The notes below the pieces were generated by a model. It saw only the letters and a list, made by a program, of their open reading frames with translations, did no database searches and had not been told where the DNA came from. DNA of 63,780 nucleotides, filler included, from Folioceros fuciformis (Eukaryota): assembly GCA_049999805.1 (NCBI GenBank). It is 15 parts of 15 records of this genome, joined end to end, with 100 filler letters (N's around TTAATTAATTAA, not from the genome) between each part and the next. Parts side by side here need not be neighbours in the genome. Positions count along the whole stretch, not along the records: positions 29,256 to 31,127 come from JBNGIO010004874.1; 14 more parts are not named here. One strand, given 5' to 3'. Positions within the stretch are counted from its first letter, which is position 1, and every line of letters begins with the position of its first letter. Positions 22,564-53,283 of this stretch are shown one piece after another. The position numbers were made by a program, and so were the translations under genes.

Positions 22564-22922
22564 TACCCGTCCCTATGTTCAAACCATTATTATATTATTT
22601 ATTATTATTTAATATTATTATATTATTATTTAATCATTTAGTATTATATATCTTTAATTAATATTAAACTAATCACCCAACCCTATGGCCTGGTGCCGAA
22701 CCTAAACCTTCCCAGGTCTGGGACCAAACCTATACCCACTCTTATAACCAAGCTAACTATTTCCTGGTCAATTAACCTAATTAGCACAAAGAAAAATAGG
22801 AAAAATGACCAGAAAATCAAGGAAAATTAGGTAAAATAAGTTGAAAAAGAAAACCAAACCATACCACTATTAACCCTTTTTCAACCAAAACAAACTACTA
22901 CCCCAAACTTTGGAGGTTCACA
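22564..22922 (-). repeat. TGTGAACCTCC LTR-like terminus (copy 2), inserted into a copia gag
   Basis: Matches about 8057-8414; interrupts gag at SDHLNEF. Confidence 0.85.
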
Positions 22923-27100: not shown

Positions 27101-28759
27101 AAAGGTGTTGTGTCTCGTCAGCTGACTCAGGGAAACAAGATTTTTCCCCATATGGGGGACATAGAGCACAGGCTCTAAGGCAAGTGTTGTCCCGTCAGAT
27201 AGAGGTAGGTCACAGGTCCCTTGCCCGAGTATGGGCAGGCTGGACTTGTTCTGCTCGTCTCCCAGAAGGACCCTTTCTCTAACTGGCCGGGTGTCAAGCT
27301 TAGAGAAAAGGCTGCTGCCGTTACAGATGTGGGCGGTGGCGCCACTGTCTAGGTACCACCCCCCATCCTGTTGTAACTGCGTGTTCAGACAAATGGTTAG
27401 AACTTTAACTGTCTTCGTGTCATCGGGCTTTCCTTTGACAGCAACAGTAGCGGTCTGGCGAAGACCAGGCTTCTGGGGTTCTCTCGCCTTCTTCTTGCAG
27501 CATTCTCTCGTCCAGTGACCCGGAATGCCACACCAGTTACAGTTGCCGGGGGCGCCTGGGGTGGGAAGAGCTTGACCCACCCTTGGAGGGAGTAGGCTGC
27601 TTTCCCTTAGGCTTACCGGGCTTAGCACGAGCTGCAAGCGCCTTGTCCGCCTTGGGCTTGGACCCTCCTGCGGCGTTAAGGCGGCTTTGCTCGTGCTAGT
27701 ACAACACTCCTATAATCTCCTCCACTGTAAGCGAAGAAGTAGAGCCGGAGGCACCGCGGGTAGAAACCAGCATAAGGCTTGTGACAAAGTGTTGGTAAGA
27801 GCCTGGAAGGCTCATGAGAAGTTGGGCAGCAGCATCAGTCTCAGTCAGGGTTGACCCGAGGGAGGCTAGTTGTCCACGGAGCTGCCGGAACTTAGAGGTG
27901 TGAGTGGCAACCGAATCAGACTCCTTCATCTTAAGCGCGTTGAACTCCTGTCGAACGCTGTAGAGGGTCAATACGTTATTCACATTGTAAGTGTTAGCGA
28001 GTTGGTCCCAGATAGCGGAAGCATTAGTGAGGAACTCGATGTTCGGCACTATGCTGGAATCAAGGCCGCTGATAAGGAGAGCGATCGCGATGCCGTTGAG
28101 GTACTCCCACTTCTCCACCTCGGCTGCGGTGGGTGGCGGAGTGGCAGACGGGTTGGGCTTAGGCAAGGCGCCGTCGACGACTTTCCAAACACCGCGGCCG
28201 ATGAGTACCGACTTCATTCGAACACGCCAGATGGGGTATCGGTGCCCGTTGAAGCGGTCTTATTCTTTAATTTAGTTGGTGAAGATGGGAGTTGCGCCGA
28301 GAACAGTCAAGGAGGAGGTGGTGGCCATGACGGTTGTCGGGTTGAGGGAAAGTGAATTCAACTGGTGAATTAGTTGATCCAGAAGGGAGTTTCCGTTCAT
28401 GGTCATAAAAACGGTCTCGAGGAAGGTAGTAAACCCTTAGCTCGCTCTTTCGATAAGTATATATATTTCATTTAGAAAATAATCCACAAGAAATATAGCG
28501 TAAGGGGGCTAGTGCCTAGGTGTGGTAACCTGGCGTGGGTGTTCCTTCCTACGGGCCGAGCTCAAACCGCCGTTGTAGTCGATAGACAAGCTCCACCTGA
28601 TACTCGGCGGCGAATTGAAGTTCGTCCCAGAGTTCCGCGGCGGGATCGTGAGCTGGTGGGGGCGTGGCAGCAGGTTCAATCTTGACGTGGGGGTCGTGCT
28701 CCACGGCGTATTGATCTTCCGAAATTCCGAGAGAATAAATTCCGACCTTATTCCTAACA
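24170..28759 (-). mobile_element. Copia B, nearly complete and degenerate (probable 5' LTR, gag, PR, IN, RT, RH)
   Basis: gag 27696-28328; CNWCGIPGHW knuckle; WYLDSGAT; LRSDNGTEF; LYVDDLIL; DADWASD; minus-strand start TGTTAGG at 28759 abuts gypsy pol. Confidence 0.93.
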
Positions 28760-29155
28760 CAAGTTTGCAGATGTATTCTCAGAAATGCAAGGGCTGCCAC
28801 CGAGAAGAGAAGTGGACCACACCATCGAGCTGGTGCCAGGAGCAAAGCCTGTGGTGAGGCCACCTTATAGGCTAGCTCCCCCAAAGAACATGGAAGTTCA
28901 AGCTGCAGTGAATGGACTGCTGAAGAAGGGGCTGATTGAGGAATCAGTATCACCTTATGTTGCTCCCGTTCTCATAGTCAAGCACAAAAATGATAAGATT
29001 AGAATGTGCGTTGACAACAGAGGGTTAAATGCATCCACCATCAAGAATAGGTTTCAAATGCTCAGGATAGAAGAGATTTTGGATAACCTTGTGGGTGCCA
29101 AAGTCTTTAGCAAGGTTGATCTTCAGAGTGGCTTTCACCAAATCAGAATTCGTGC
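28760..29155 (+). mobile_element. Ty3/gypsy reverse transcriptase N-terminal fragment
   Basis: FADVF..GLPPRREVDHTIELVPGAKP...SPYVAPVLIVK...RMCVDNRGLN...FSKVDLQSGFHQIRI. Confidence 0.93.
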
Positions 29156-29255
29156 NNNNNNNNNNNNNNNNNNNNNNNNNNNNNNNNNNNNNNNNNNNNT
29201 TAATTAATTAANNNNNNNNNNNNNNNNNNNNNNNNNNNNNNNNNNNNNNNNNNNN

Positions 29256-31127
29256 AGGCAGGTTCCCACCACTACATCATCCAGCAGACCTCTGTGGACA
29301 ATTTGTGAGTGAAGCTTCCTGCCCTTTTGCAAGGCACCAATGCTTCCACACGCCTTTAGAAGGCAACCAAAAGTAACATCATTAGCCGAAACAAGGCCTG
29401 CCTCCTCCATCTGTCCATACACAACAAGCGCCTCTTGCCCGAGTCCTTGCTGTGCATACCCAGCGATCATGGCTGTCCATGTCACCACATCCTTCGAGGC
29501 CATGCCGTCGAAAACCTGGCGGGCATCTTCCAGCTCAACACATTTTGCATACATGTCCACCAGGCAGTTTCCCACCACTATATTATCCAGCAGTTCTCTC
29601 TTGACAATCTGTGAGTGAAGCTCCCTGCCCTTCTGCAACGCACTAGTGCTTGCACACGCCTTCAGAAGGCAAGAAAAAGTAACATCATCAGCCAAAACGA
29701 GCCCTGCCTTCTCCATTTGTGCATATACAACAAACGCCTCTTGGCCGAGTCCTTGCTGTGCATACCCACCAATCAGGGCATTCCATGTCACCACATCCTT
29801 CGTGTCCATCCCGTCAAAAACCTGGCGTGCATATTCCACCTCCCCACATTTTGCATACATGTCCACCAGGCAGGTTCCCAGTAGCACATGATGCAGTTGT
29901 TCTCTCTTGACAATCTGTGAGTGTAGCTCCCCGCCCTTCTGCAAGCCACCAGTGCTTGCACACGCCTTCAGAAGGCAGGCAAAAGTAACATGGTCAGCCA
30001 CATCGAGGCCCGCCTCCTCCATTTGTCCATACACAACAAGTGCCTCTTGACCGAGTCCTTGCTGTGCATACCCAGCGATCAGGACCGTCCATGTTACCAC
30101 ATCCTTCGCGTTCATGCTATGAAAAACCTGGCGTGCATCTTTCATTCGGCCACATTTTGCATACATGTCCACCAAGCAGCTGTTAACAAACAAGTCAGTA
30201 CGGAAGCCACTGCGCAACACGTCGCGGTGCACTGTTCTGCCAGATTCGAAGTCGGCAGCAAATGCACAAGCTTGAAGGGCGGCTACAAAGACATAACCAT
30301 TCGCCTTCACTTCTGACCTACGCATTTCATAGTACAGTTGTATGGCCTCCTTCGGCTTCCCGTGCTTAGCATGTGCAGAGATTATGGAAACCCACATGAA
30401 GACACTCGGTTTCCCTACCCTGTTGAACACATCCATCGCCTCCTTTAGCCTACCTCCACATGCATACATGCGCAAGATATGGTTCCCCAAAAATGCATTC
30501 GACTCGTACCCAAGTTTGACTGTGAGATCATGAACTCGTCGCCCCACCACCAAATCCTTCTTAGCTGTACAGAGCTTTAACACTGTGTAAAACAGAGACT
30601 GAGAAACGCCAGAGTCTGACTGCACCAGAGATTCCAGGGCTCCAACGGCCTCAGAAAGCTCCCCCTGATGACATAACATGCTCACGGTTCCAGCAGTTAC
30701 GACGCCCGTTTCCAATTCTGTACGCCTGCCAGATCCACGCTTATACAGAGAGCTGCACTCGAAAGAAGAGATTCCATGGCCCATTGGATGTGGAAGTGCT
30801 GGGTCTCTTACACTGCTGCCCCTGGAGCCCATTTCATCACCTCTACGCCTTCCAGGTCCAGGATGATCTCGAGAGCTGGAGGTGGATGCAGCGGAACCGT
30901 AATCCATCTGCATATCCAAGGAGACGAGCTTGTCATCAACCCATGCTGGCTTAAACCTGTTGTCCAACCACAGCACCTCGCCAGAACCCTTACGCCGGAA
31001 GTCAGGGGAACGGGAGCTCTTCTTGTCTCGTCTGTTATCCCACCACATGCTAGGGTCCAGAAAAAGTTGTTGCCACAATTGCTCCTGCTGCTCCTGGCAA
31101 CTACCAGCATCGTCGGAAAACCCGTCC
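29256..31127 (-). CDS. PLS-class pentatricopeptide repeat protein with an N-terminal PDF (OSB-type) motif; partial at both ends
   Basis: Repeated P-L-S triplets (DVVTWxxxIxGY / VTFxCLLKAC / LVDMYAKCG); N-terminal WWDNRRDKKSSRSPDFRRKGSGEVLWL. Confidence 0.93.
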
Positions 31128-31801
31128 NNNNNNNNNNNNNNNNNNNNNNNNNNNNNNNNNNNNNNNNNNNNTTAATTAATTAANNNNNNNNNNNNNNNNN
31201 NNNNNNNNNNNNNNNNNNNNNNNNNNNGTCCTACGCCTGATCGGAGCTGGAGGGGAGCCCTCGAATCCGTCATCGAGTCGATCAAGTCCGACCCTCCATC
31301 CACAGCAGCAAGGAACCCCATCGCTCCTTCGTGGGAACGAAACCCAATGTCTCAACGACAGTGGGATAAGTGTGGCCACTAAAGGTGGAACCCGTCGGCA
31401 ATCAGTGCCCGGGGTTTTGCCTCCACATATGCTCTTACCTCACTTAATCCCATCGTATCTTACTTCCCTCTTTAAACACAAGGTTGCACCCCACAACTTA
31501 TGATGGGCATGATTCTATCATGATTTCCTCCCAATGATTCTATCTTCTAAGCTCTCGTGTACTATTTTTTTTCAAGTACATAATCGAGGTGGACACTTAG
31601 TCCATGAAAAGTAGTTGCCGCAAATTTTTTTATATATATATTTGTTTCAAAAATTTAGGATTTATACAAAAAAGAAGAAGAGAAATCCCTTTCTACCTAT
31701 AATTTTCTGTCTCCCTTTCTTTCTTTCTACCTACCTAGGCCTACACTAATTTTCTCTCTCCCATCCTACTCATACCCTAGTTGCTAAGATGCTATACTAA
31801 G

Positions 31802-33370
31802 CTAAGCGACCACTCCCTTATTTCCATTCACAATCCTTTCCTCGCTACAGCCACTCGAAGGTGAAGAGCTTGGACTTGAATAGTAGTAGTAGTCGGACGA
31901 AGGAGTATCACATTGATAAGGCTCAGGTGCAGAAGGAGAGGCATCGCTTGGCACGGGGCTGTCGTATGGGGTGCTCGGTTCATTTGCTGGTGCGGGTGTG
32001 GGTTCATCTACTATGGTCGGTGCTGGTGTTGGTTCATCCACGCTTGTTGGTGTTGGTGTTGTTGGTGTTGGTAGTGTCGGTGGTAGTGCTGTGATGCTTC
32101 CATCACCGCTTGAACCGTTGGAATTGCTTGAACCATTGGAATTGCTTGAACTAGTTGAACTGCTTGAACCAATTGAACCGCTTGAACCAGTTGAACCGGT
32201 TCCTTGATATATGGCAACATTCCAATTATATGATATAGTGGCATTGCATAGAGCTTGAATGCTAATGGTACCACTTCCACTTGCACTTCCACTTAAAGTG
32301 ACATGCCCTGATCCTTGGACATACCACGAAGCCAAAGTACCCAAAATCCCAGCTTCCAAATGATATAGATCCCACCATAAGAAGGTCTTAGAATTCTCAC
32401 AATGCTTTGTGCTGCTTCTGCACGGGGTATTCCCATCACCGCAACATGCTCTTGTAGGATGTTGGATTCCATACTTGGCAGGATGATGAATAATCTCATT
32501 AGTTGCGTGAAGAGTTGGAAGAATAACAAACTTAGCCTCGGTCAACCTATGATGGAAGAGATGATGGAGTTCAGTATTCAACTTCCTGTTGTAGGTACTG
32601 ATATGCTGATTGACTTCTTTGTTGCACCCATTGGACCTAGTGGCATGAATAACCGAAGGAGAACACCCCAAAGATCCAACATCGGCTATGATGAATTTTC
32701 GGGCCCCTTGTTTGTATAACTTGTGGATGTTTTTCACCATCCTATGAATAAGGGTTCTATGAAATTCTTTTCCTGAAATGTCACGTCTACCTATAATTCT
32801 TTGATGAATGTCATCGGTACCCACATCAATGTAATACAATGAGTGTGCTAGATGTCTGGCAACATGATGATTCACATCACCACCATCTTTGGCGAATTGT
32901 CTTGCAAGAGCTGGAATTGCTCTTCGTTCAAACAATTCCACTTGATGGTGGAAAGGTAGAACACGCCCATATTGTTTTCCAGTACTCTTTAGCAACCCTG
33001 ATTTGCCAGAAGCAAAACTCACACCTTCATGTCTAATAGCTCTTCGTGTATGAGATAAAAAGGGTTCTTGAAAATTTTCATAACCAAGATGACTTGCAAA
33101 GTAATCCACCAAAATGCGACCATTGCTGAATCTCCCTGTGGCCTTTCTTGAGTCAAACTCTTTTCCATAAGGATAGTAATTTGCTTTTGCCTCCGATTTT
33201 AAGTGGAGGTGATTATTGTTGCCTATCTCTGCCACGGAATCTCCAAAAGAGTATATGGAGCCTTTAAATTTGTGCGAAGATGCATGCGAGCTAAGAGCAC
33301 AAGTGCATAAAATGCATAGAATAATAACTTGAATATTTGTTGACATCTTAAAGAATGGGCTCATTTCCAC
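31802..33370 (-). CDS. Secreted GDSL/SGNH esterase-lipase with a Ser/Gly- and Pro/Thr-rich C-terminal tail; intronless
   Basis: Hydrophobic N-terminal signal; FGDSV, PYG, TGRFSNG, FASG and WWDLYH blocks. Confidence 0.9.
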   Translation of the reverse strand: MEMSPFFKMSTNIQVIILCILCTCALSSHASSHKFKGSIYSFGDSVAEIGNNNHLHLKSEAKANYYPYGKEFDSRKATGRFSNGRILVDYFASHLGYENFQEPFLSHTRRAIRHEGVSFASGKSGLLKSTGKQYGRVLPFHHQVELFERRAIPALARQFAKDGGDVNHHVARHLAHSLYYIDVGTDDIHQRIIGRRDISGKEFHRTLIHRMVKNIHKLYKQGARKFIIADVGSLGCSPSVIHATRSNGCNKEVNQHISTYNRKLNTELHHLFHHRLTEAKFVILPTLHATNEIIHHPAKYGIQHPTRACCGDGNTPCRSSTKHCENSKTFLWWDLYHLEAGILGTLASWYVQGSGHVTLSGSASGSGTISIQALCNATISYNWNVAIYQGTGSTGSSGSIGSSSSTSSSNSNGSSNSNGSSGDGSITALPPTLPTPTTPTPTSVDEPTPAPTIVDEPTPAPANEPSTPYDSPVPSDASPSAPEPYQCDTPSSDYYYYSSPSSSPSSGCSEERIVNGNKGVVA

Positions 33371-46517: not shown

Positions 46518-49500
46518 TCACACGACAACGTGCCCTCCAAATACACATCCCTGGACATAATAGCTCCTGACGGGGACCTGCTCCGGCGTGTTGCTAAGGG
46601 CAGAAGGGATGACTAGTTTCTGCCCAAGCAAATGCTCACCCTTTCCGTCATTAGATGTGTTCGGAGGTGACGGGTCCAAATGTGGCACACACCCATTCTT
46701 CATTTTGAGATTTGTCTGTTTCATCAGTCTTGCTTGGCTTCTAAGATGCTGCTTACCCCCAACTAGAAAACTATGCACCAGACCATCCATGTCTGTCCAA
46801 AAGCTCTGACCAGGCTGCTTCCATGCCCTGTTTCTTAATCGCCTGGCCTGCATCTCTTGTGCCTGCTCCCACATGTGGGCACCCGTGTATATGTTGGACA
46901 TGGACACATAGGCTGCTGCATCTTTCTTGTCTAGCTTCTCGCCTTCATTGAAAGCATAGCGACCCACCTCTACATTGCTCCACTTCAAACAGGCATTCAA
47001 TAGTGTGTGCCAAACAGCAGCATTCGGGACAAGAGGCATGGACCTTATAAAGGCTAGTGCCTCATCCAGTTGCCCTGCACGGCCTAGGAGATCTACCATG
47101 CACGTGTAGTGCTCCAGGGTGGGACTGATGCCATATTGACTGCTCATAGCGTCGAAGAATTCCCTCCCCTTCCTCACTAGACCCGCATGACTGCATACTG
47201 TTAAAACACTAAGGAATGTGATACCAACTGGCTGGGTGTTTTCCTTCCTCATTTCCTGAACTAAGTCAAAAACCACTTGACTGTCTCCTTGAGAGGCGTA
47301 GCCTGCAATTAGTGCACACCAAGCAGAGACATCTCTCTTGGGTAACGCATCAAATACCTGCTGAGCATTAACCATGCTTCCGCACTTCCCATACATGTTT
47401 ATCAAACTGCCGCCGACAAACTTGTCAGCTTCGATGCCTTGTGCTATGATTTGTGCATGTAGCTGCCTTCCCAAATGCAAAGCTGCCATATTTGCACATG
47501 CCTGCAGTAGGCAAACAAATGTCACTGAATCAGGTACAGCTATGCCTTCTTCTTGCATGGCATTGTACAGACGAAGGGCTTCCCGGCCTATTCCTTGCTC
47601 GGAATACCCTGCTATCATGGCAGTCCACGTAACAACATTCTTCTGAGCAAGACTGTCAAACACCCTCTGAGCGTGCTCCAAGCTGCCACACTTCGCATAC
47701 ATGTTCACCAAACTGCTGGCTACAAACACATCAGTCTCATGTCCATGTTCTGTAATCTGCTTATGAAGATGCTTGCCCTTCTCCAAGGCTGGGGTCCCCA
47801 CACTTGCACATGCCTGCAGGAGGAACACAAAGGTCATGGAATCAGGCACAGCAACGCCACTGTCTTGCATAGCACTGTAGAGAACAAGCGCTTCCTGTCC
47901 CATCCCCTTCTGAGAATATCCAGCTATCATGGCATTCCACGACACCACATCTTTGTCATCAAGACTGTCAAAGACTTTCTGTGCATCTTGCAAGCTTCCA
48001 CACTTTGCATACATGTTCACCAAACTGTTGGCTACAAACACATCGGTTTCATGTCCTTGTTCTCTAATTTGCAAATGCAGTTGCTTTCCCTTCTCCAGTG
48101 CAAGGTTGCCTACACCAGCACATGCCTGCAGGAGGCACACAAATGTCACAGCATTGGGAACAGCCATGCCTTCGTCCAACATAGCACTGTACAGATCAAG
48201 GGCTTTCTGGCCCAAGCCCTGCTGGGAATAACTTGCCAACATAGTGGTCCATGTCACCACATTTTTCTGACCAAATCTACCAAACACAGTCTCAGCATCT
48301 TCCATGCTACCACACTTCGAATACATGTGAACCAAACTGCTGGCCACAAACACATCAGCTTCATGTCCTTGTTTTCTTATTAGCATATGAAGCTGCTTCC
48401 CTTTTTCCAAAGCTGGATTGCCCAAACTTGCACAAGCTTGCAGAAGGGACACGAACGTCACAGAATCAGGTAGAGAGATGCCTTCTTCTTGCATGGCACT
48501 GAAGAGACGTAGTGCGTCCTGCCCCTTGCCCTGCCGTGCATATCCGGATATCAAAGCATTCCAAGTCACTACATCCTTTTGAACTAACCCGTCAAACACT
48601 CCCTGCGCATCTTCCAAGCTGTCACACTTGGCATACATGTTCACTAGACAGTTGGCTAGAACCACGTCACCATCGTATCCTCGTTCTCTTATGTGCCCAT
48701 GAAGCTTCTTCCCTTTTTCCAACGCAAGGGTGCCGATACTTGCGCAGGCCTGCAAGAGGCACAGAAATGTCACGGAATTGGGGACGGCCGTACCATCTTC
48801 TTGCATAGCACTGTAAAGACGAAAGGCTCGGTGGGCCAAGCCCAGCTGGGAACAACCTGCTATCATGGCATTCCATGTTACTACATCTTTTTGAGCAAGT
48901 CCATCAAACACTCCCTGCGCATCTTTAAAGCTGCCACATTTTACATACATGGTCACCAAGCTGGTGGATACAAATACGTCAGCTTGGTGTCCTAGCGTTT
49001 GAATTTGTGTGTGTAGCTCCTTGCCCTTGTCCAACGCCGGGGCACCCACAGTTGCACATGCCTGCAGCAGGCACACAAATGTAACGGCATTAGGTACAGC
49101 TACGCCTTCTTCTTGCATAACACTGTAGAGACTAAGGGCTTCCTGGCCTAGTCCACTCTGGGAGTATCCTCCAATTAGAGCAGTCCATGTCACCACATCT
49201 TTGTGAGCAAGCCCGTCGAACACCTTATGAGCTTCTTCCAAGCTGCCACACTTTACATACATGTGGACCAAGCAATTGGATACAAACAAGTGGGGCTTGA
49301 TTCCACTGGCCAAGACATCCGCATGCACCTGCTGCCCAGCCTTCAAGTCTGATGCTCTCGCACATGCTTGAAGGGCTGCCACAAACACATGGCTATCAGC
49401 CTTCACACCCGTCCTACGCATCCGAGCATACAGTTCAAAGGCCTGCCTATCTTGACCGTTCTTAACATGTGCAGAAATTATGGAAGACCACATGAAGCTG

Positions 49501-49892
49501 TCTGGACAAGCAACCATGGTGAACACGTTCATCGCCTCCTGCAATCTGCCATGTGCAGCATACATTCGCAGGATATGGTTGCACAGAAACTTGTCCGACT
49601 GGTACCCGCTCTTCATCGTGAAAGCATGTACGCGGCGCCCCAGAAAAAGATCTCTGCCCACTGCGCACTTCTTGAGGACGGTACAGAAAAGAGAGATGGA
49701 AATGCAGCAGTCTGTCTCCACCAGGACTCCCAAAGCCTCCACAGCCGCAATGAGGAGGCCCCCATCACAGAGCCTGCTCACGGTATCAACAGTAAGGGTG
49801 CTGTGGTACTCGGCAGGAGCAGAGCTAACAGAGTCGAAATTTTCCAGCAAGCTGCAGTTGGATTCGGTGACACGACGATCCATCTCCACCAA
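46518..49892 (-). CDS. PLS-class PPR protein with E1/E2, WW-type PG box and degenerate DYW; putative organellar RNA-editing factor
   Basis: About 8 PLS triplets; HYTCMVDLLGRAG, VWHTLLNAC, KQPGQSFWTDMDGLVHSF; no HxE or CxxC. Confidence 0.93.
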   Translation of the reverse strand: MVEMDRRVTESNCSLLENFDSVSSAPAEYHSTLTVDTVSRLCDGGLLIAAVEALGVLVETDCCISISLFCTVLKKCAVGRDLFLGRRVHAFTMKSGYQSDKFLCNHILRMYAAHGRLQEAMNVFTMVACPDSFMWSSIISAHVKNGQDRQAFELYARMRRTGVKADSHVFVAALQACARASDLKAGQQVHADVLASGIKPHLFVSNCLVHMYVKCGSLEEAHKVFDGLAHKDVVTWTALIGGYSQSGLGQEALSLYSVMQEEGVAVPNAVTFVCLLQACATVGAPALDKGKELHTQIQTLGHQADVFVSTSLVTMYVKCGSFKDAQGVFDGLAQKDVVTWNAMIAGCSQLGLAHRAFRLYSAMQEDGTAVPNSVTFLCLLQACASIGTLALEKGKKLHGHIRERGYDGDVVLANCLVNMYAKCDSLEDAQGVFDGLVQKDVVTWNALISGYARQGKGQDALRLFSAMQEEGISLPDSVTFVSLLQACASLGNPALEKGKQLHMLIRKQGHEADVFVASSLVHMYSKCGSMEDAETVFGRFGQKNVVTWTTMLASYSQQGLGQKALDLYSAMLDEGMAVPNAVTFVCLLQACAGVGNLALEKGKQLHLQIREQGHETDVFVANSLVNMYAKCGSLQDAQKVFDSLDDKDVVSWNAMIAGYSQKGMGQEALVLYSAMQDSGVAVPDSMTFVFLLQACASVGTPALEKGKHLHKQITEHGHETDVFVASSLVNMYAKCGSLEHAQRVFDSLAQKNVVTWTAMIAGYSEQGIGREALRLYNAMQEEGIAVPDSVTFVCLLQACANMAALHLGRQLHAQIIAQGIEADKFVGGSLINMYGKCGSMVNAQQVFDALPKRDVSAWCALIAGYASQGDSQVVFDLVQEMRKENTQPVGITFLSVLTVCSHAGLVRKGREFFDAMSSQYGISPTLEHYTCMVDLLGRAGQLDEALAFIRSMPLVPNAAVWHTLLNACLKWSNVEVGRYAFNEGEKLDKKDAAAYVSMSNIYTGAHMWEQAQEMQARRLRNRAWKQPGQSFWTDMDGLVHSFLVGGKQHLRSQARLMKQTNLKMKNGCVPHLDPSPPNTSNDGKGEHLLGQKLVIPSALSNTPEQVPVRSYYVQGCVFGGHVVV

Positions 49893-50508
49893 AGCTTTAG
49901 CAGAAGCCAGATGGTCGCTGTTGTTATCTTCCCTGCCATTTTATCTAAGTGTCACGTGCACAATAACGGAGCCACAAGAGCTCCAGGCGACCAACCTTGC
50001 TGCGAGAGTTTGTGTCCACTTAGACATCTTGGCAGACGATGTATTCCAGCTTTGGTTCATCCAGGTCAAAAACCAACAGACCCGAAGCGGGGCTCCTAGC
50101 TCCGCGCCTGTCTCTGCTGGCCCCATCAAGCAACCATGCATTTGCAGCTGCACCGTGGATTGCATGAACTGGAAGTCCATTGAAACGCGATTCAGTCATT
50201 TGCGCACGCGTCTTTCAAACGAAGTAAGTTGAAAATGTTTTATCTTCCTTTGGCACGAGTGCTGCTCCCCATACGTGGATCCCCACCATGTGTGCTCATT
50301 AAGTACATACAAGTGTGCAGCTCCAGCCGGATGGCAATGTGTGCAGACTATGTGGAGCCTGTTGAAGCCATCTTCCCAAGGTGCTCTCCGAGCCTATCCT
50401 TATGCCGTGTGCACCATCAGCATAATGACATCGTGTCTATATGGTGGGTACTTTCTCTCTTGAAAGGCATTCTGGGCAGAGTGTAGTGCCTCCGGTGCCA
50501 TCAGGCTA

Positions 50509-53283
50509 ATGCCCGGATGTCTGGCAATTTCTCATCAAAATCCTAGTAGGCACGCTGCCATCTCTTACGAGAATCAACTTGTTCCCCTGGGCGAGCAGCA
50601 AGTTCATGCGCTTGCATCCAAGTTGTGGGCCTTCTTTCCTTGCGAGGAAGGGATTATGCATGCTGGGACTCCACCGGAATCAGTGTGGAGACCTTGCCAT
50701 GTCCAGCCAATTCCCTGGCATTCGGTGCCAATCAGTTCTCTTGCATCGGGAGTTGGTAATGGTATCCAAGAGATCGGTAGCCCTGCGGTTCAAATGTCGG
50801 AAAGGACCCAGAGAACACGTTGGCTGCAGGATAGTAGTTCTCCACAACGGGCACATCCCGAAAGGAGTACTGGCAAAGGTAGCGGCACCATCGTTGCAGG
50901 TGAGAGCAAGCTGGATGATGTCTTTGCCATGACAGAGTCTGGGCGAGGAGAGGACTTCTGGAAGACCCTGATATTGCAACATACTAAGAGTGGTCGAGGT
51001 GCAGACGCTCTGAAATTGTACAAGGAGATGCGAAATGATGGCGTGGATCCAGGGCCACATACTTTCGTGGCACTGTTGAAGGCGTGCAGTAGCTTGCAGG
51101 ACCTAAAAAATGTCAAGGAGGTCCACGCAGAAGTGGTTAGAAGTGGGCTTGAGACAGATGTCTATGTGGGCACTATGCTTGTTGACGTGTATGCAAAATG
51201 TGGGAGTGTGGAGAATGCGAGGCGGGTGTTTGAGGAAATGCCTCAGCGTGATGTGGTTTCCTGGAATGCCATGATTTTGGGGTATGCACATACGGAGAAG
51301 GGTGATGAGGCTTTGCATTTGTACGCAATGATGCAACAGGCTGGTATGGCCCCCAACAACCGAACTTATGTTGGAGTCCTTAAGGCCTGCAGCACGATTG
51401 CAGAGTTGGGGTGGCGAAATGGCGGTGACGAAATGCTTGCTAAACAACAGTGCTTGAAGACCGTGAGAGGCATCCACAATGAAATTGAGAAGGGGAAGTT
51501 TGACTCTGATGTCTTCGTGATGAACATGCTGGTCGATGCGTATGTGAAATGTGCGAGCCTGGAGGACGCTAGGCGGGTGTTTGAGCAATTGCCTTCTCGC
51601 AATGTGGTTTTGTGGAATACCATTATCTTGGGGTACTCGCAGATGGAGCAGGGTGAGGAGGGATTGCAATTGTACTCACGAATGCAGCAGGAGGGTGTGG
51701 TACCAGACGACCGAACATACGTCAGTGTACTAAAGGCTTGCAGTACCATTGCAGAGGTGGGGAAAAAGAATGGGCATGACAAGCTTCTCGTAACGAAACA
51801 ATGCCTGGAAACAGTGGTAGCCATCCATGCAGATGTCAGGAGGGGTGGAGTAGAGGGAAATTTGTTCGTGGGAAATATGCTAGTGGATGCTTACTCAAAA
51901 TGTGGGAGCCTCGAGAGTGCCAGGCGGGTTTTCGAGGAAATGCCTTGTCGGGACGTTGTTTCCTGGAATGCCATGATCTCGGGTTACGCCCAGGTGGAGA
52001 AGGGCGAAGAGTCTTTGCTCCTGTATACACGGATGCAACAGGAAGGTGTTATTCCGGACAATCGAACTTACGTTGCTGTGCTTAAGGCTTGCAGTGCCAT
52101 AGCAGGTTTGTGGGGCTCAATGGCCGATAACGACATGAAACAACGATGCCTGGAAATGGTGACATCCATCCATGCAACTGTTGGGAAGGACAAGTATGGG
52201 TCAGATGTATTCGTGGGGACGATGCTGGTGGATGCGTATGCCAAATGTGGAAGCCTGGAGAATGCTAGGAATGTGTTTGAGCAGATTCCTCATCGAGACG
52301 TGGTTTCCTGGAATGCTATGATTCTCGGGTACGCTCAGTTGGAAAAAGGTGAAGAGGCTTTGCAGCTGTACACTCGGATGCAGCAAGAAGCTGTGGTCCC
52401 AGATGACAGGACATATGTAGGTGCTCTCAATGCTTGTGGTGCTGTGGCAGGACTAGAGAAGGGAAGGGAGATTCATGCACAGATTGTGAAGACTGGCCTA
52501 GATGCTGGACCATTTATAGCAAATAGTTTGATCGACATGTACGGAAAATGTGCGAGCATGGTTGATGCACAACAGGTATTTGATGCAATGCCCACAAGAG
52601 AAGTTGTGACATGGAATGCATTGCTTGTGGGATATGCACGTCAGGGGGAGAGTGAAGCTGTCTTCGATCTGTTCAACAGGATGAAGGAAGAGGGTGTGCA
52701 GCCCGACGACGTCACCTTTCTCGCTATCCTCAGTGTGTGCAGTCATGTGGGTCTTGTGGATACGGGCAAGCAGTACTTTGATGCGATGAGAACAGAGTAT
52801 GCGATAAAGCCCACCATCCAGACCTTCAATTGCTTAGTTGACCTTCTTGGGCGTGCTGGCCAAGTCCAGAAGGCAATGGAGATGGTGAAAGTTATGCCTT
52901 TTCAAGCAAATCTGCCATTGTGGAAATCTGTTCTGGGTGCTTGTCAAAAGTGGGGAATGGTTGAGCTTGGGAGACACGCATTTGAATGTGCAGTGAAGGT
53001 AGATAAAAGTGATGCTGCACCATATGTGTTGATGTCAAACATCTATGCAGCAGCTGACATGCCTGAGCAGGCAGAGCAAATTCAGTCGCTGCGAGTGACA
53101 TCCCGAGCATGGAAAGAGCCAGGGCGGAGCTGGTGGACAGACATGAACGGTATCGCTCACGTCTTTGTTGTCGGAGACCAAGTTCATCCTGAAAGCAGCG
53201 ACATATATGGTAAAATAGGGGACCTTTTGGCGAAAATGGAGGCAGCAGCACTTGGATATTGTGTTGGAAAGTATCCCAGATGA
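50509..53283 (+). CDS. PLS-class PPR protein with E1/E2, PGRSWWTD box and truncated DYW
   Basis: PLS triplets; FNCLVDLLGRAG; KEPGRSWWTDMNGIAHVFVVGDQVHP; start codon uncertain. Confidence 0.93.
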   Translation: MPGCLAISHQNPSRHAAISYENQLVPLGEQQVHALASKLWAFFPCEEGIMHAGTPPESVWRPCHVQPIPWHSVPISSLASGVGNGIQEIGSPAVQMSERTQRTRWLQDSSSPQRAHPERSTGKGSGTIVAGESKLDDVFAMTESGRGEDFWKTLILQHTKSGRGADALKLYKEMRNDGVDPGPHTFVALLKACSSLQDLKNVKEVHAEVVRSGLETDVYVGTMLVDVYAKCGSVENARRVFEEMPQRDVVSWNAMILGYAHTEKGDEALHLYAMMQQAGMAPNNRTYVGVLKACSTIAELGWRNGGDEMLAKQQCLKTVRGIHNEIEKGKFDSDVFVMNMLVDAYVKCASLEDARRVFEQLPSRNVVLWNTIILGYSQMEQGEEGLQLYSRMQQEGVVPDDRTYVSVLKACSTIAEVGKKNGHDKLLVTKQCLETVVAIHADVRRGGVEGNLFVGNMLVDAYSKCGSLESARRVFEEMPCRDVVSWNAMISGYAQVEKGEESLLLYTRMQQEGVIPDNRTYVAVLKACSAIAGLWGSMADNDMKQRCLEMVTSIHATVGKDKYGSDVFVGTMLVDAYAKCGSLENARNVFEQIPHRDVVSWNAMILGYAQLEKGEEALQLYTRMQQEAVVPDDRTYVGALNACGAVAGLEKGREIHAQIVKTGLDAGPFIANSLIDMYGKCASMVDAQQVFDAMPTREVVTWNALLVGYARQGESEAVFDLFNRMKEEGVQPDDVTFLAILSVCSHVGLVDTGKQYFDAMRTEYAIKPTIQTFNCLVDLLGRAGQVQKAMEMVKVMPFQANLPLWKSVLGACQKWGMVELGRHAFECAVKVDKSDAAPYVLMSNIYAAADMPEQAEQIQSLRVTSRAWKEPGRSWWTDMNGIAHVFVVGDQVHPESSDIYGKIGDLLAKMEAAALGYCVGKYPR

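Follow-up and report, generated by a model that had tools for sequence, protein, structure and literature searches.

The window, a stretch of 63,780 nucleotides of assembled Folioceros fuciformis DNA (GCA_049999805.1), contains an interior piece of a plant nuclear gene, here called P0001; it encodes a PLS-class PPR protein of the RNA-editing-factor type, in which a single intact OSB-type PDF domain precedes the PPR array. The fusion is real; its PDF and PPR parts are each known, and the combination was not found in print, full-text literature searches having turned up no description of a PDF-PPR fusion. The best explanation, which we consider fairly probable, is that P0001 is part of a PDF-PLS protein of editing type with a probable DYW:KP end, in which the PDF domain would act as a single-strand anchor, a DNA tether being favored. 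PPR editing factors are usually presented as an RNA-reading array with an E/DYW part at the C-terminus; a conserved domain taken over from organellar ssDNA-binding proteins and placed at the N-terminus would give such factors a third functional element.

The stretch is made of 15 contigs joined by 44N+TTAATTAATTAA+44N linkers (N-run table and contig list), so the proximity of the P0001 gene to other genes of the window is uninformative, and because its own contig spans just 29256–31127, the gene is truncated at both ends. Its features, in coordinates of the window, are as follows.

29256..31127, no strand: contig that bears the finding, 1,872 bp, with a 44N+TTAATTAATTAA+44N linker on either side
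29258..31126, minus strand: P0001 frame, 623 codons with zero stops, open at both contig ends (translation)
31046..31048, minus strand: ATG in the P0001 frame (Met27), within the PDF motif (ORF listing)
30923..31090, minus strand: alignment to the OSB-only HMM, P0001 residues 13–68 (converted from ORF numbering)
30938..31075, minus strand: PDF motif WQQLFLDPSMWWDNRRDKKSSRSPDFRRKGSGEVLWLDNRFKPAWV, P0001 residues 18–63
30887..31108, minus strand: confidently modeled PDF domain, P0001 residues 7–80 (AlphaFold2)
30695..30886, minus strand: Ser/Gly/Arg-rich linker of ~64 residues, P0001 residues 81–144, predicted to be mostly disordered
29258..30694, minus strand: PLS-class PPR array of about five P-L-S triplets, P0001 residues 145–623, the last triplet cut by the contig end

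The PDF motif, its frame and its predicted fold

The PDF motif is described, in the available part of one review, as a ~50-residue segment with a conserved Pro-Asp-Phe signature (PMC6963530), a definition that fits P0001, whose residues 41–43 read PDF. The motif WQQLFLDPSMWWDNRRDKKSSRSPDFRRKGSGEVLWLDNRFKPAWV lies inside the interval 30920–31080 that the earlier note had assigned to it. A profile HMM was built from OSB proteins exclusively (55 motif copies from 30 proteins with an SSB domain, i.e., of OSB architecture, and no others; 58 positions) and compared with the 1,284 six-frame ORFs of the window; P0001 aligned over HMM positions 2–56 with 72.1 bits (E 1.8e-21), which equals the level of the OSB copies, and the runner-up ORF reached 8.5 bits (E 0.13). 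This profile match identifies the P0001 motif as a true PDF motif of OSB type, as proposed in the earlier note, which had made its reading depend on a significant match of this kind. In an alignment of 39 sequences, the P0001 copy keeps all seven invariant columns, motif residues P30, D31, and F32 among them, and all 13 near-invariant ones.

Database searches place the motif in the same family. A phmmer search of 1.84 billion cluster representatives with the 59-aa motif returned 636 proteins at E ≤ 1e-3, and in 30 of the best 150 of these a Pfam SSB domain precedes 1–4 copies of the motif, the arrangement of OSB proteins; in a second motif search, PF00436 was present in 101 of the 120 matches listed. 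The matches listed include "protein OSB1, mitochondrial," "OSB2, chloroplastic-like," and "organellar single-stranded DNA binding protein 3." A word-indexed protein search with P0001 residues 1–80 gave six candidates, none of which was scored, a limit of that index when compared with the exhaustive search.

The claim that the motif lies in frame with, and upstream of, a PLS array holds: both belong to one stop-free frame of 623 codons that matches Pfam PPR (1.4e-60) and PPR_2 (4.4e-60). PLS-class arrays are defined by tandem P-L-S triplets of about 35 + 36 + 31 residues, and the P, L, and S landmarks of P0001 recur accordingly with a period of 100–103 residues. Just 17 residues precede the quoted motif before the contig ends; at the other end, the frame leaves the contig at 29258, within an S motif, before any E or DYW part, both of which are absent from the contig. 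In the editing-factor subclasses of PLS proteins, this end bears E1/E2 motifs, in some cases followed by a DYW deaminase domain. The ATG at 31048 was considered as a start codon and rejected, since conserved PDF residues (L17, W18, F22, and P25) stand upstream of Met27 in the same frame and the HMM alignment likewise extends upstream of it. Nowhere else in the window, the regions before the other two PPR genes included, did the OSB-only HMM find a PDF copy, which agrees with the earlier observation that the PPR gene at 46518–49940 lacks the motif. The segment TVS.LC..G.L..AV.AL, noted earlier as common to these two PPR genes, is indeed shared, and in the model it forms the opening helices of the PPR solenoid; since relatives both with and without PDF have it, the segment is not tied to PDF.

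The PDF domain is modeled with confidence by AlphaFold2. The 59-aa motif has a pLDDT of 92.7, and a 250-aa model has a mean pLDDT of 88–97 in each 10-residue block from residue 11 to residue 80; the predicted fold is a helix, three short strands or bridges and a long helix (H7–23, E28–30, E43–45, and H62–80 in the 250-aa model). Trp, Phe, and basic residues are abundant in the domain. Searches for a solved structure of similar kind were negative: PDB chains searched with the motif sequence gave chance-level matches only (CP29, E 0.08; MORN1, E 0.33), and a Foldseek comparison of the PDF model with the PDB yielded 0 matches at E ≤ 1e-3 (best E 3.4). The ESM Atlas, queried with P0001 residues 1–110, gave zero usable matches. 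A confident model with no solved-structure analogue makes the domain attractive for structure determination. Residues 64–150 contain 15 Ser, 12 Gly, and 9 Arg among 87, residues 88–133 (about 46) of the linker have pLDDT below 50, and helical hairpins of high pLDDT run from residue 145 onward. The pTM of the 250-aa model is 0.50, which together with the disordered linker is consistent with PDF and PPR parts that behave as two independent domains in the predicted structure.

Relatives of the fusion and the missing C-terminus

The earlier note spoke of a hybrid factor, and in one respect this has to be amended: the hybrid is not singular, for the PDF-PPR combination recurs as a family in at least 25 database proteins. 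Those with names come from Diphasiastrum complanatum (11), Adiantum capillus-veneris (1), and Selaginella moellendorffii (1). PPR proteins account for 10 of the best 150 of the 636 motif matches and for 7 of the 120 matches listed in the second motif search (six from Diphasiastrum, one from Adiantum); conversely, the OSB-only HMM detects PDF in 9 of 120 PPR relatives of P0001. Alignment by BLAST is colinear from PDF through the array for both P0262 (48% over 614 aa) and P0159 (42% over 628 aa). Judged by sequence, PDF-PPR proteins are a conserved subfamily in lycophytes, a fern, and sequences with a DYW:KP "GRP" ending. The first PDF is preceded by 59–126 residues in 13 of 25 PDF-PPR relatives and by just 1–29 residues in several database relatives; the short stretches may reflect incomplete gene models or a motif at the extreme N-terminus. 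Given these leading residues and the strict conservation of the motif, loss of PDF by splicing or together with a transit peptide, the other weakness raised in the earlier note, appears unlikely.

The closest relative, P0262, has the architecture PDF-PLS-E-DYW; Pfam recognizes its E motif and its DYW_deaminase domain, and its C-terminal part shows KPAMA and HAEKLA and closes with GRP. The C-terminal part is alike in P0262, P0271, and P0281: in all three the PLS array is followed by an E motif and then by a DYW_deaminase domain that contains KPAxA and HAEKLA and ends in GRP, KPAxA being the wording of the KP-type box. The tree computed from the PPR region joins P0001 to P0262 and P0271, which are both of KP/GRP type (SH-aLRT 92, unstarred); this grouping is nested in a starred group (98) of seven rows, four of them KP-type, which also includes P0002 of the window (PG box) and P0267 (neither of the two box patterns). 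As the nearest relatives end in E motifs followed by KPAxA…HAEKLA…GRP, the off-contig C-terminus of P0001 probably comprises E motifs and a DYW:KP deaminase-like domain of the same wording, and such an end would make the P0001 gene a candidate U-to-C editing factor. In the accessible portions of one source, DYW:KP is described as occurring only in hornworts, lycophytes, and ferns; its GRP variant, in which a KP-type box replaces the PG box and the C-terminal triplet is GRP, is put forward as the candidate U-to-C editing factors of hornworts (with reference to Gerke, 2020 and Gutmann, 2020), and designer GRP proteins are reported to edit U to C in E. coli (PMC9478123).

Proposed working and its alternatives

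The PLS array would recognize a specific organellar RNA sequence, the product being assumed, from its relatives and from knowledge of the family, to be directed to an organelle. The PDF domain, on a flexible leash, could then be a sequence-independent anchor that holds on to single-stranded nucleic acid as a tether or a clamp. According to the review as excerpted (PMC6963530), AtOSB1 needs no more than its PDF motif to bind ssDNA, and tethering to the ssDNA of a transcribing or replicating nucleoid is judged most likely; it would keep the factor near nascent transcripts as they emerge. Were this so, the long-standing question of whether editing is coupled to transcription in organelles would become directly testable.

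PPR arrays lie on RNA with the N-terminus facing the 5′ end. A close second to the DNA tether, though of fairly low probability as an explanation in its own right, is that PDF clamps ssRNA just 5′ of the PPR footprint, independent of DNA, and thereby adds sequence-independent affinity or keeps the site unfolded. The modeled layout would suit such a clamp, PDF being N-terminal to the array on a flexible linker and so on the side expected to face 5′ RNA. Other PDF architectures (a kinesin fusion in P0043, PDF-only arrays of up to 13 copies and a Volvox protein) also suggest a generic single-strand-binding module. Against it, OSB1 and OSB2 prefer ssDNA over dsDNA or RNA according to what is accessible of a further review (PMC4166229). 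If PDF does bind RNA, the presumed DNA-only role of the motif in OSB proteins needs revisiting.

PDF is patchy among close relatives, being absent from P0271, P0267, P0291, and P0002, so that the module is dispensable in some close relatives of P0001; the copy in P0281 is degenerate (CWDIR and RDF; 44.8 bits vs. 70–80 bits in others). These cases would fit a decaying or neutral appendage that was gained once by exon shuffling, is now being lost and has stopped contributing to function in P0001, or one that serves only import or protein-protein contacts. Such a history is nonetheless unlikely for P0001, whose own copy retains all 20 of the invariant or near-invariant positions and scores as OSB copies do, and PDF-PPR proteins are retained in three well-separated subclades of the PPR-region tree, with multi-copy forms in Diphasiastrum. 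A tree of 126 PDF copies, in which a mere 59 columns leave most forks unresolved, is compatible with a single origin of the PPR-attached copies as well as with more than one: PPR attachment amounts to seven label changes, and the starred branches require only one. That the locus yields no PDF-PPR protein at all, the contig being chimeric or the frame a pseudogene or read-through intron, is very improbable: the contig is short, the assembly fragmented and the gene cut at both ends, but 623 codons run without a stop and the order PDF, linker, array recurs in independent gene models on chromosome-scale contigs of other species with colinear alignments.

The DNA tether, then, is the reading we prefer. 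A wider version of it, put forward with considerable doubt, would make PDF an ancient module of the green lineage, recruited to PLS editing factors before the hornwort-like, lycophyte, and fern sequences of this comparison diverged, that couples editing, including U-to-C editing by DYW:KP/GRP proteins, to nucleoid ssDNA; if true, editing would be organized co-transcriptionally by a built-in DNA tether. The DYW:KP/GRP class is also under engineering for programmable U-to-C editing, as described in excerpts of PMC9478123, and an accessory affinity module on proteins of this type could have practical use.

Comparison with known systems

OSB proteins (Arabidopsis OSB1–4 and orthologues), which bind organellar ssDNA and carry C-terminal PDF motifs, share the same ~55-residue PDF motif with P0001, which keeps W..F..P..WWDNR..K....PDF..K.....LW......P.WV. 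In P0001, unlike OSB proteins, PDF is N-terminal to its partner, and the partner is a sequence-specific RNA-binding PPR array; an OB-fold/SSB-like domain is lacking in both P0001 and full-length P0262 (Pfam; no SSB domain at E ≤ 1 in P0001, none in P0262). P0001 was also considered as an OSB protein, and this assignment was rejected because the SSB-like domain, central in OSB proteins and N-terminal to their PDF motifs, is absent.

DYW:KP "GRP" PLS proteins include the nearest relatives of P0001, which share PLS, E, KPAxA, HAEKLA, and GRP, the corresponding end of P0001 lying off the contig; an N-terminal PDF domain goes unmentioned in the excerpted description of these proteins (PMC9478123). 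Canonical PLS-E-DYW factors of PG type, which edit C to U, have the PLS architecture in common with P0001. PDF fusions to a canonical DYW domain also occur: P0170 and P0283 (both Diphasiastrum) and P0282 have a PG box, HSE(K/R)LA, CxDCH, and a DYW ending, and differ from the canonical PG-type factors by their extra N-terminal PDF domain.

Among PPR proteins with further domains, the accessible text of a recent review names bZIP, coiled-coil, WQQ, SMR, and NYN, and the terms PDF, OSB, and ssDNA occur in it 0 times (PMC11897456). PPR-SMR proteins (SOT1, PPR-SMR1) and PRORP with its NYN domain likewise join a PPR specificity array to a second module directed at nucleic acid (PMC11897456, in part). 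The SMR and NYN modules are C-terminal and are described in the same excerpts as nuclease domains (PMC11897456), whereas PDF is a small N-terminal module for which no role other than binding is known.

The PDF-PPR frame and the identity of its motif

The window of 63,780 bases is made up of 15 short contigs (1.1–12.9 kb, GC 37–64%) and is not one locus; the contigs are joined artificially by linkers of 44N + TTAATTAATTAA + 44N (e.g., 29156–29255 and 31128–31227), and gene order and neighborhood across linkers are therefore uninformative. The unrelated contig at 22564–29155 contains, by eye, retrotransposon gag-like and reverse-transcriptase-like fragments at 27696–28217 (−) and 28785–29207 (+), and an intronless 520-codon ORF at 31802–33364 (−) looks by eye like a GDSL lipase, with a signal-peptide-like start, an FGDS motif, and a long Ser/Pro/Thr-rich tail at its end. 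The features of the PPR contig, which is short enough that any longer gene is cut, are as follows.

29256–31127: contig with the PDF-PPR frame, 1,872 bp
29258–31126, minus strand: P0001, a stop-free translation of 623 residues, open at both contig ends
30938–31075, minus strand: PDF peptide quoted in the earlier note, P0001 residues 18–63
30917–31093, minus strand: AlphaFold2 PDF-motif model m89b763c3d399, from only 39 aligned sequences

The motif lies in frame with and upstream of a PLS-class PPR array, as the earlier note had stated. PPR (1.4e-60) and PPR_2 (4.4e-60) are the sole Pfam families downstream of it in the same frame, and the array has P, L, and S landmarks at a spacing of 100–103 residues, which amounts to roughly five P-L-S triplets, of which the final one is interrupted at the contig end. 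An ATG at 31048 was rejected as the start of P0001: it lies inside the motif, and conserved motif residues extend upstream of it in frame, so that the true start lies beyond the contig end.

[quoted passage not shown] When the 59-residue motif was compared exhaustively by phmmer with 1.84 billion cluster representatives, 636 proteins matched at E ≤ 1e-3 (162 at E ≤ 1e-10). Pfam scans of the best 150 of these 636 placed an SSB domain N-terminal to one to four motif copies in 30, the order that reviews describe for OSB proteins (PMC6963530, PMC4166229), with PPR repeats in 10 and a kinesin motor in one; 107 had no Pfam match at E ≤ 1e-5, and small matches in two were taken to be spurious. Against a 58-position profile built from 55 motif copies, exclusively of the 30 SSB-bearing proteins, the window ORF scored 72.1 bits (E 1.8e-21, profile positions 2–56), the runner-up among 1,284 six-frame window ORFs reaching 8.5 bits. 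A small motif-alignment search found 369 proteins; PF00436 occurs in 101 of the 120 matches listed, among which are "protein OSB1, mitochondrial," "OSB2, chloroplastic-like," and "organellar single-stranded DNA binding protein 3." In an alignment of 39 sequences, seven columns are invariant and 13 near-invariant, and the window copy keeps them all. The profile match, the OSB-named relatives, and the conserved columns together confirm the PDF assignment proposed earlier. P0001 is not itself an OSB protein, since Pfam finds no SSB-like domain in it or in P0262, a full-length relative.

The 59-residue motif was modeled by AlphaFold2 with a mean pLDDT of 92.7 as a helix, three short strands or bridges, and a helix. 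In a 250-residue model of P0001, the PDF domain spans approximately residues 7–80 (10-residue block means of 88–97 over residues 11–80), residues 88–133 fall below pLDDT 50, and PPR hairpins run from residue 145 on (block means 89–98); the pTM of 0.50 is consistent with the two domains being independent and flexibly linked, and the connecting stretch has many Ser, Gly, and Arg residues. The PDF fold appears to be structurally uncharacterized: Foldseek gave no match in the PDB at E ≤ 1e-3, and a PDB sequence search with the motif found no related solved structure.

Distribution of PDF-PPR proteins and of the PDF module

The fusion noted earlier is real and conserved, but it is not singular: at least 25 distinct database proteins carry both PDF and PPR. 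The last set below comes from a word-indexed search with P0001 residues 1–330, PDF being called by the OSB-only profile.

PDF-PPR proteins in database searches
Best 150 of 636 motif representatives (10 of 150): P0007, P0058, P0095, P0099, P0101, P0118, P0126, P0131, P0137, P0141
Further six from the motif-alignment search (seven PPR proteins among the 120 matches listed, P0058 being in both sets), all Diphasiastrum complanatum: P0154, P0155, P0159, P0160, P0167, P0170
Best 120 PPR relatives (9 of 120): P0262, P0264, P0266, P0269, P0274, P0281, P0282, P0283, P0292

A pair of short fragments, P0116 (weak Pfam PPR match, E 0.0038) and P0144 (no Pfam match; its post-motif tail resembles that of P0116 by eye), may belong here as well. 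Named sources are D. complanatum (11), Adiantum capillus-veneris (one, P0058), and Selaginella moellendorffii (one, P0292); PDF was found in no seed-plant, moss, or liverwort PPR protein among the best 120 relatives, a similarity-ranked sample rather than a census. BLAST aligns P0001 colinearly from PDF through linker to array with P0262 (48% over 614 residues) and P0159 (42% over 628 residues); the homology thus extends over the entire architecture, which speaks against an accident of assembly. PDF-PPR proteins have one to three PDF copies; 13 of the 25 have 59–126 residues before the first, leaving room for a targeting peptide, and the others, with 1–41, may be incomplete gene models. These proteins are already public, labeled "hypothetical protein." Full-text searches pairing the PDF motif or OSB with PPR, DYW, lycophytes, or ferns, mostly in the main text of open-access papers, found no description of the fusion, and a 2024 PPR review (PMC11897456) gives other accessory domains with no occurrence of PDF, OSB, or ssDNA.

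The motif also occurs elsewhere. Among P0043, P0003, P0004, P0006, P0153, and P0157, all motif relatives, are a kinesin-motor protein of 1,526 aa with three PDF copies and PDF-only arrays reaching 13 matched stretches; a Volvox africanus protein has four copies and no SSB match, and an Amborella protein has five. Judging from these sequences, PDF seems to be a module that has moved about within the green lineage.

PPR class and related frames

P0262, the closest full-length relative among the best 120 (950 aa), carries a PDF at 59–117 ahead of its PLS array, then an E motif and a DYW_deaminase domain with a KPAMA box, HAEKLA, CMDCH, and a GRP ending. The C-termini of P0281 and of P0271, whose array is 56% identical to that of P0001, are of this type too. 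KPAxA and HAEKLA occur together in P0262, P0281, and P0291, and KPAxA is matched in P0271 and P0275; P0267 has HAEKLA, but KKVAKTW replaces its KPAxA box. Endings among these six nearest relatives are GRP, DHL, GCG, and DSP, and only some of the six have PDF. In a quick maximum-likelihood tree built from 477 columns of the PPR region in 23 rows, P0001, P0262, and P0271 come together at SH-aLRT 92 (not starred), within a group of seven (98, starred) that adds KP-type P0281 and P0291, P0267, and P0002. The C-terminus that P0001 lacks is, we infer with moderate confidence, of the DYW:KP/GRP type, and the source may be a hornwort. Only hornworts, lycophytes, and ferns have DYW:KP domains, and U-to-C editing occurs in these groups; hornworts have two variants, "GRP" and "DRH," and designer GRP proteins gave about 22–26% U-to-C conversion in E. 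coli (PMC9478123).

PDF is also found on canonical PG-type DYW proteins (P0170, P0282, P0283), and PDF-PPR proteins are spread over three separate, well-supported subclades of the PPR-region tree; some close relatives of P0001 lack PDF, and the P0281 copy is degenerate. The module therefore seems either old and repeatedly lost or moved more than once, a choice for which the PDF tree is too short.

Two other PLS PPR frames stand head-to-head on one contig, about 0.5 kb apart.

46518–49940, minus strand: P0002, 1,140 codons, with an E motif and a PG-type box (KQPGQSF)
50464–53283, plus strand: P0382, 939 codons, with E, E+, and a PG box; no DYW, no PDF

P0002 and P0001 share 54% identity across the array. 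The tail of P0002 beyond the PG-type box shows neither the HxE nor the CxxCH signature of deaminases, suggesting that its DYW domain has degenerated or been frameshifted. P0002 has no PDF, in agreement with the earlier note. The segment TVS.LC..G.L..AV.AL, noted earlier as shared by the two frames, coincides with the first modeled PPR helices instead of preceding the array, and it is found in relatives with and without PDF.

Possible roles of the PDF module

In P0001 a flexible linker connects an intact PDF domain to a PLS array, an arrangement that is conserved. This identity and architecture are virtually certain, the mechanism far less so; our best explanation, taking identity, architecture, and mechanism together, is probably correct. 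PDF would anchor the factor, as if by a leash, to single strands of any sequence, and a tether to nucleoid ssDNA would place it at emerging transcripts, a reading we hold tentatively. RNA-bound PPR arrays have their N-terminus towards the 5′ end, and PDF could instead clamp RNA 5′ of the PPR footprint, which we consider somewhat less likely. That PDF is a neutral or decaying appendage is improbable, and an artefact is very improbable indeed. For OSB proteins, reviews report that in AtOSB1 the PDF motif is sufficient for ssDNA binding and the OB-fold appears inactive (PMC6963530), and that both OSB1 and OSB2 prefer ssDNA over dsDNA or RNA (PMC4166229).
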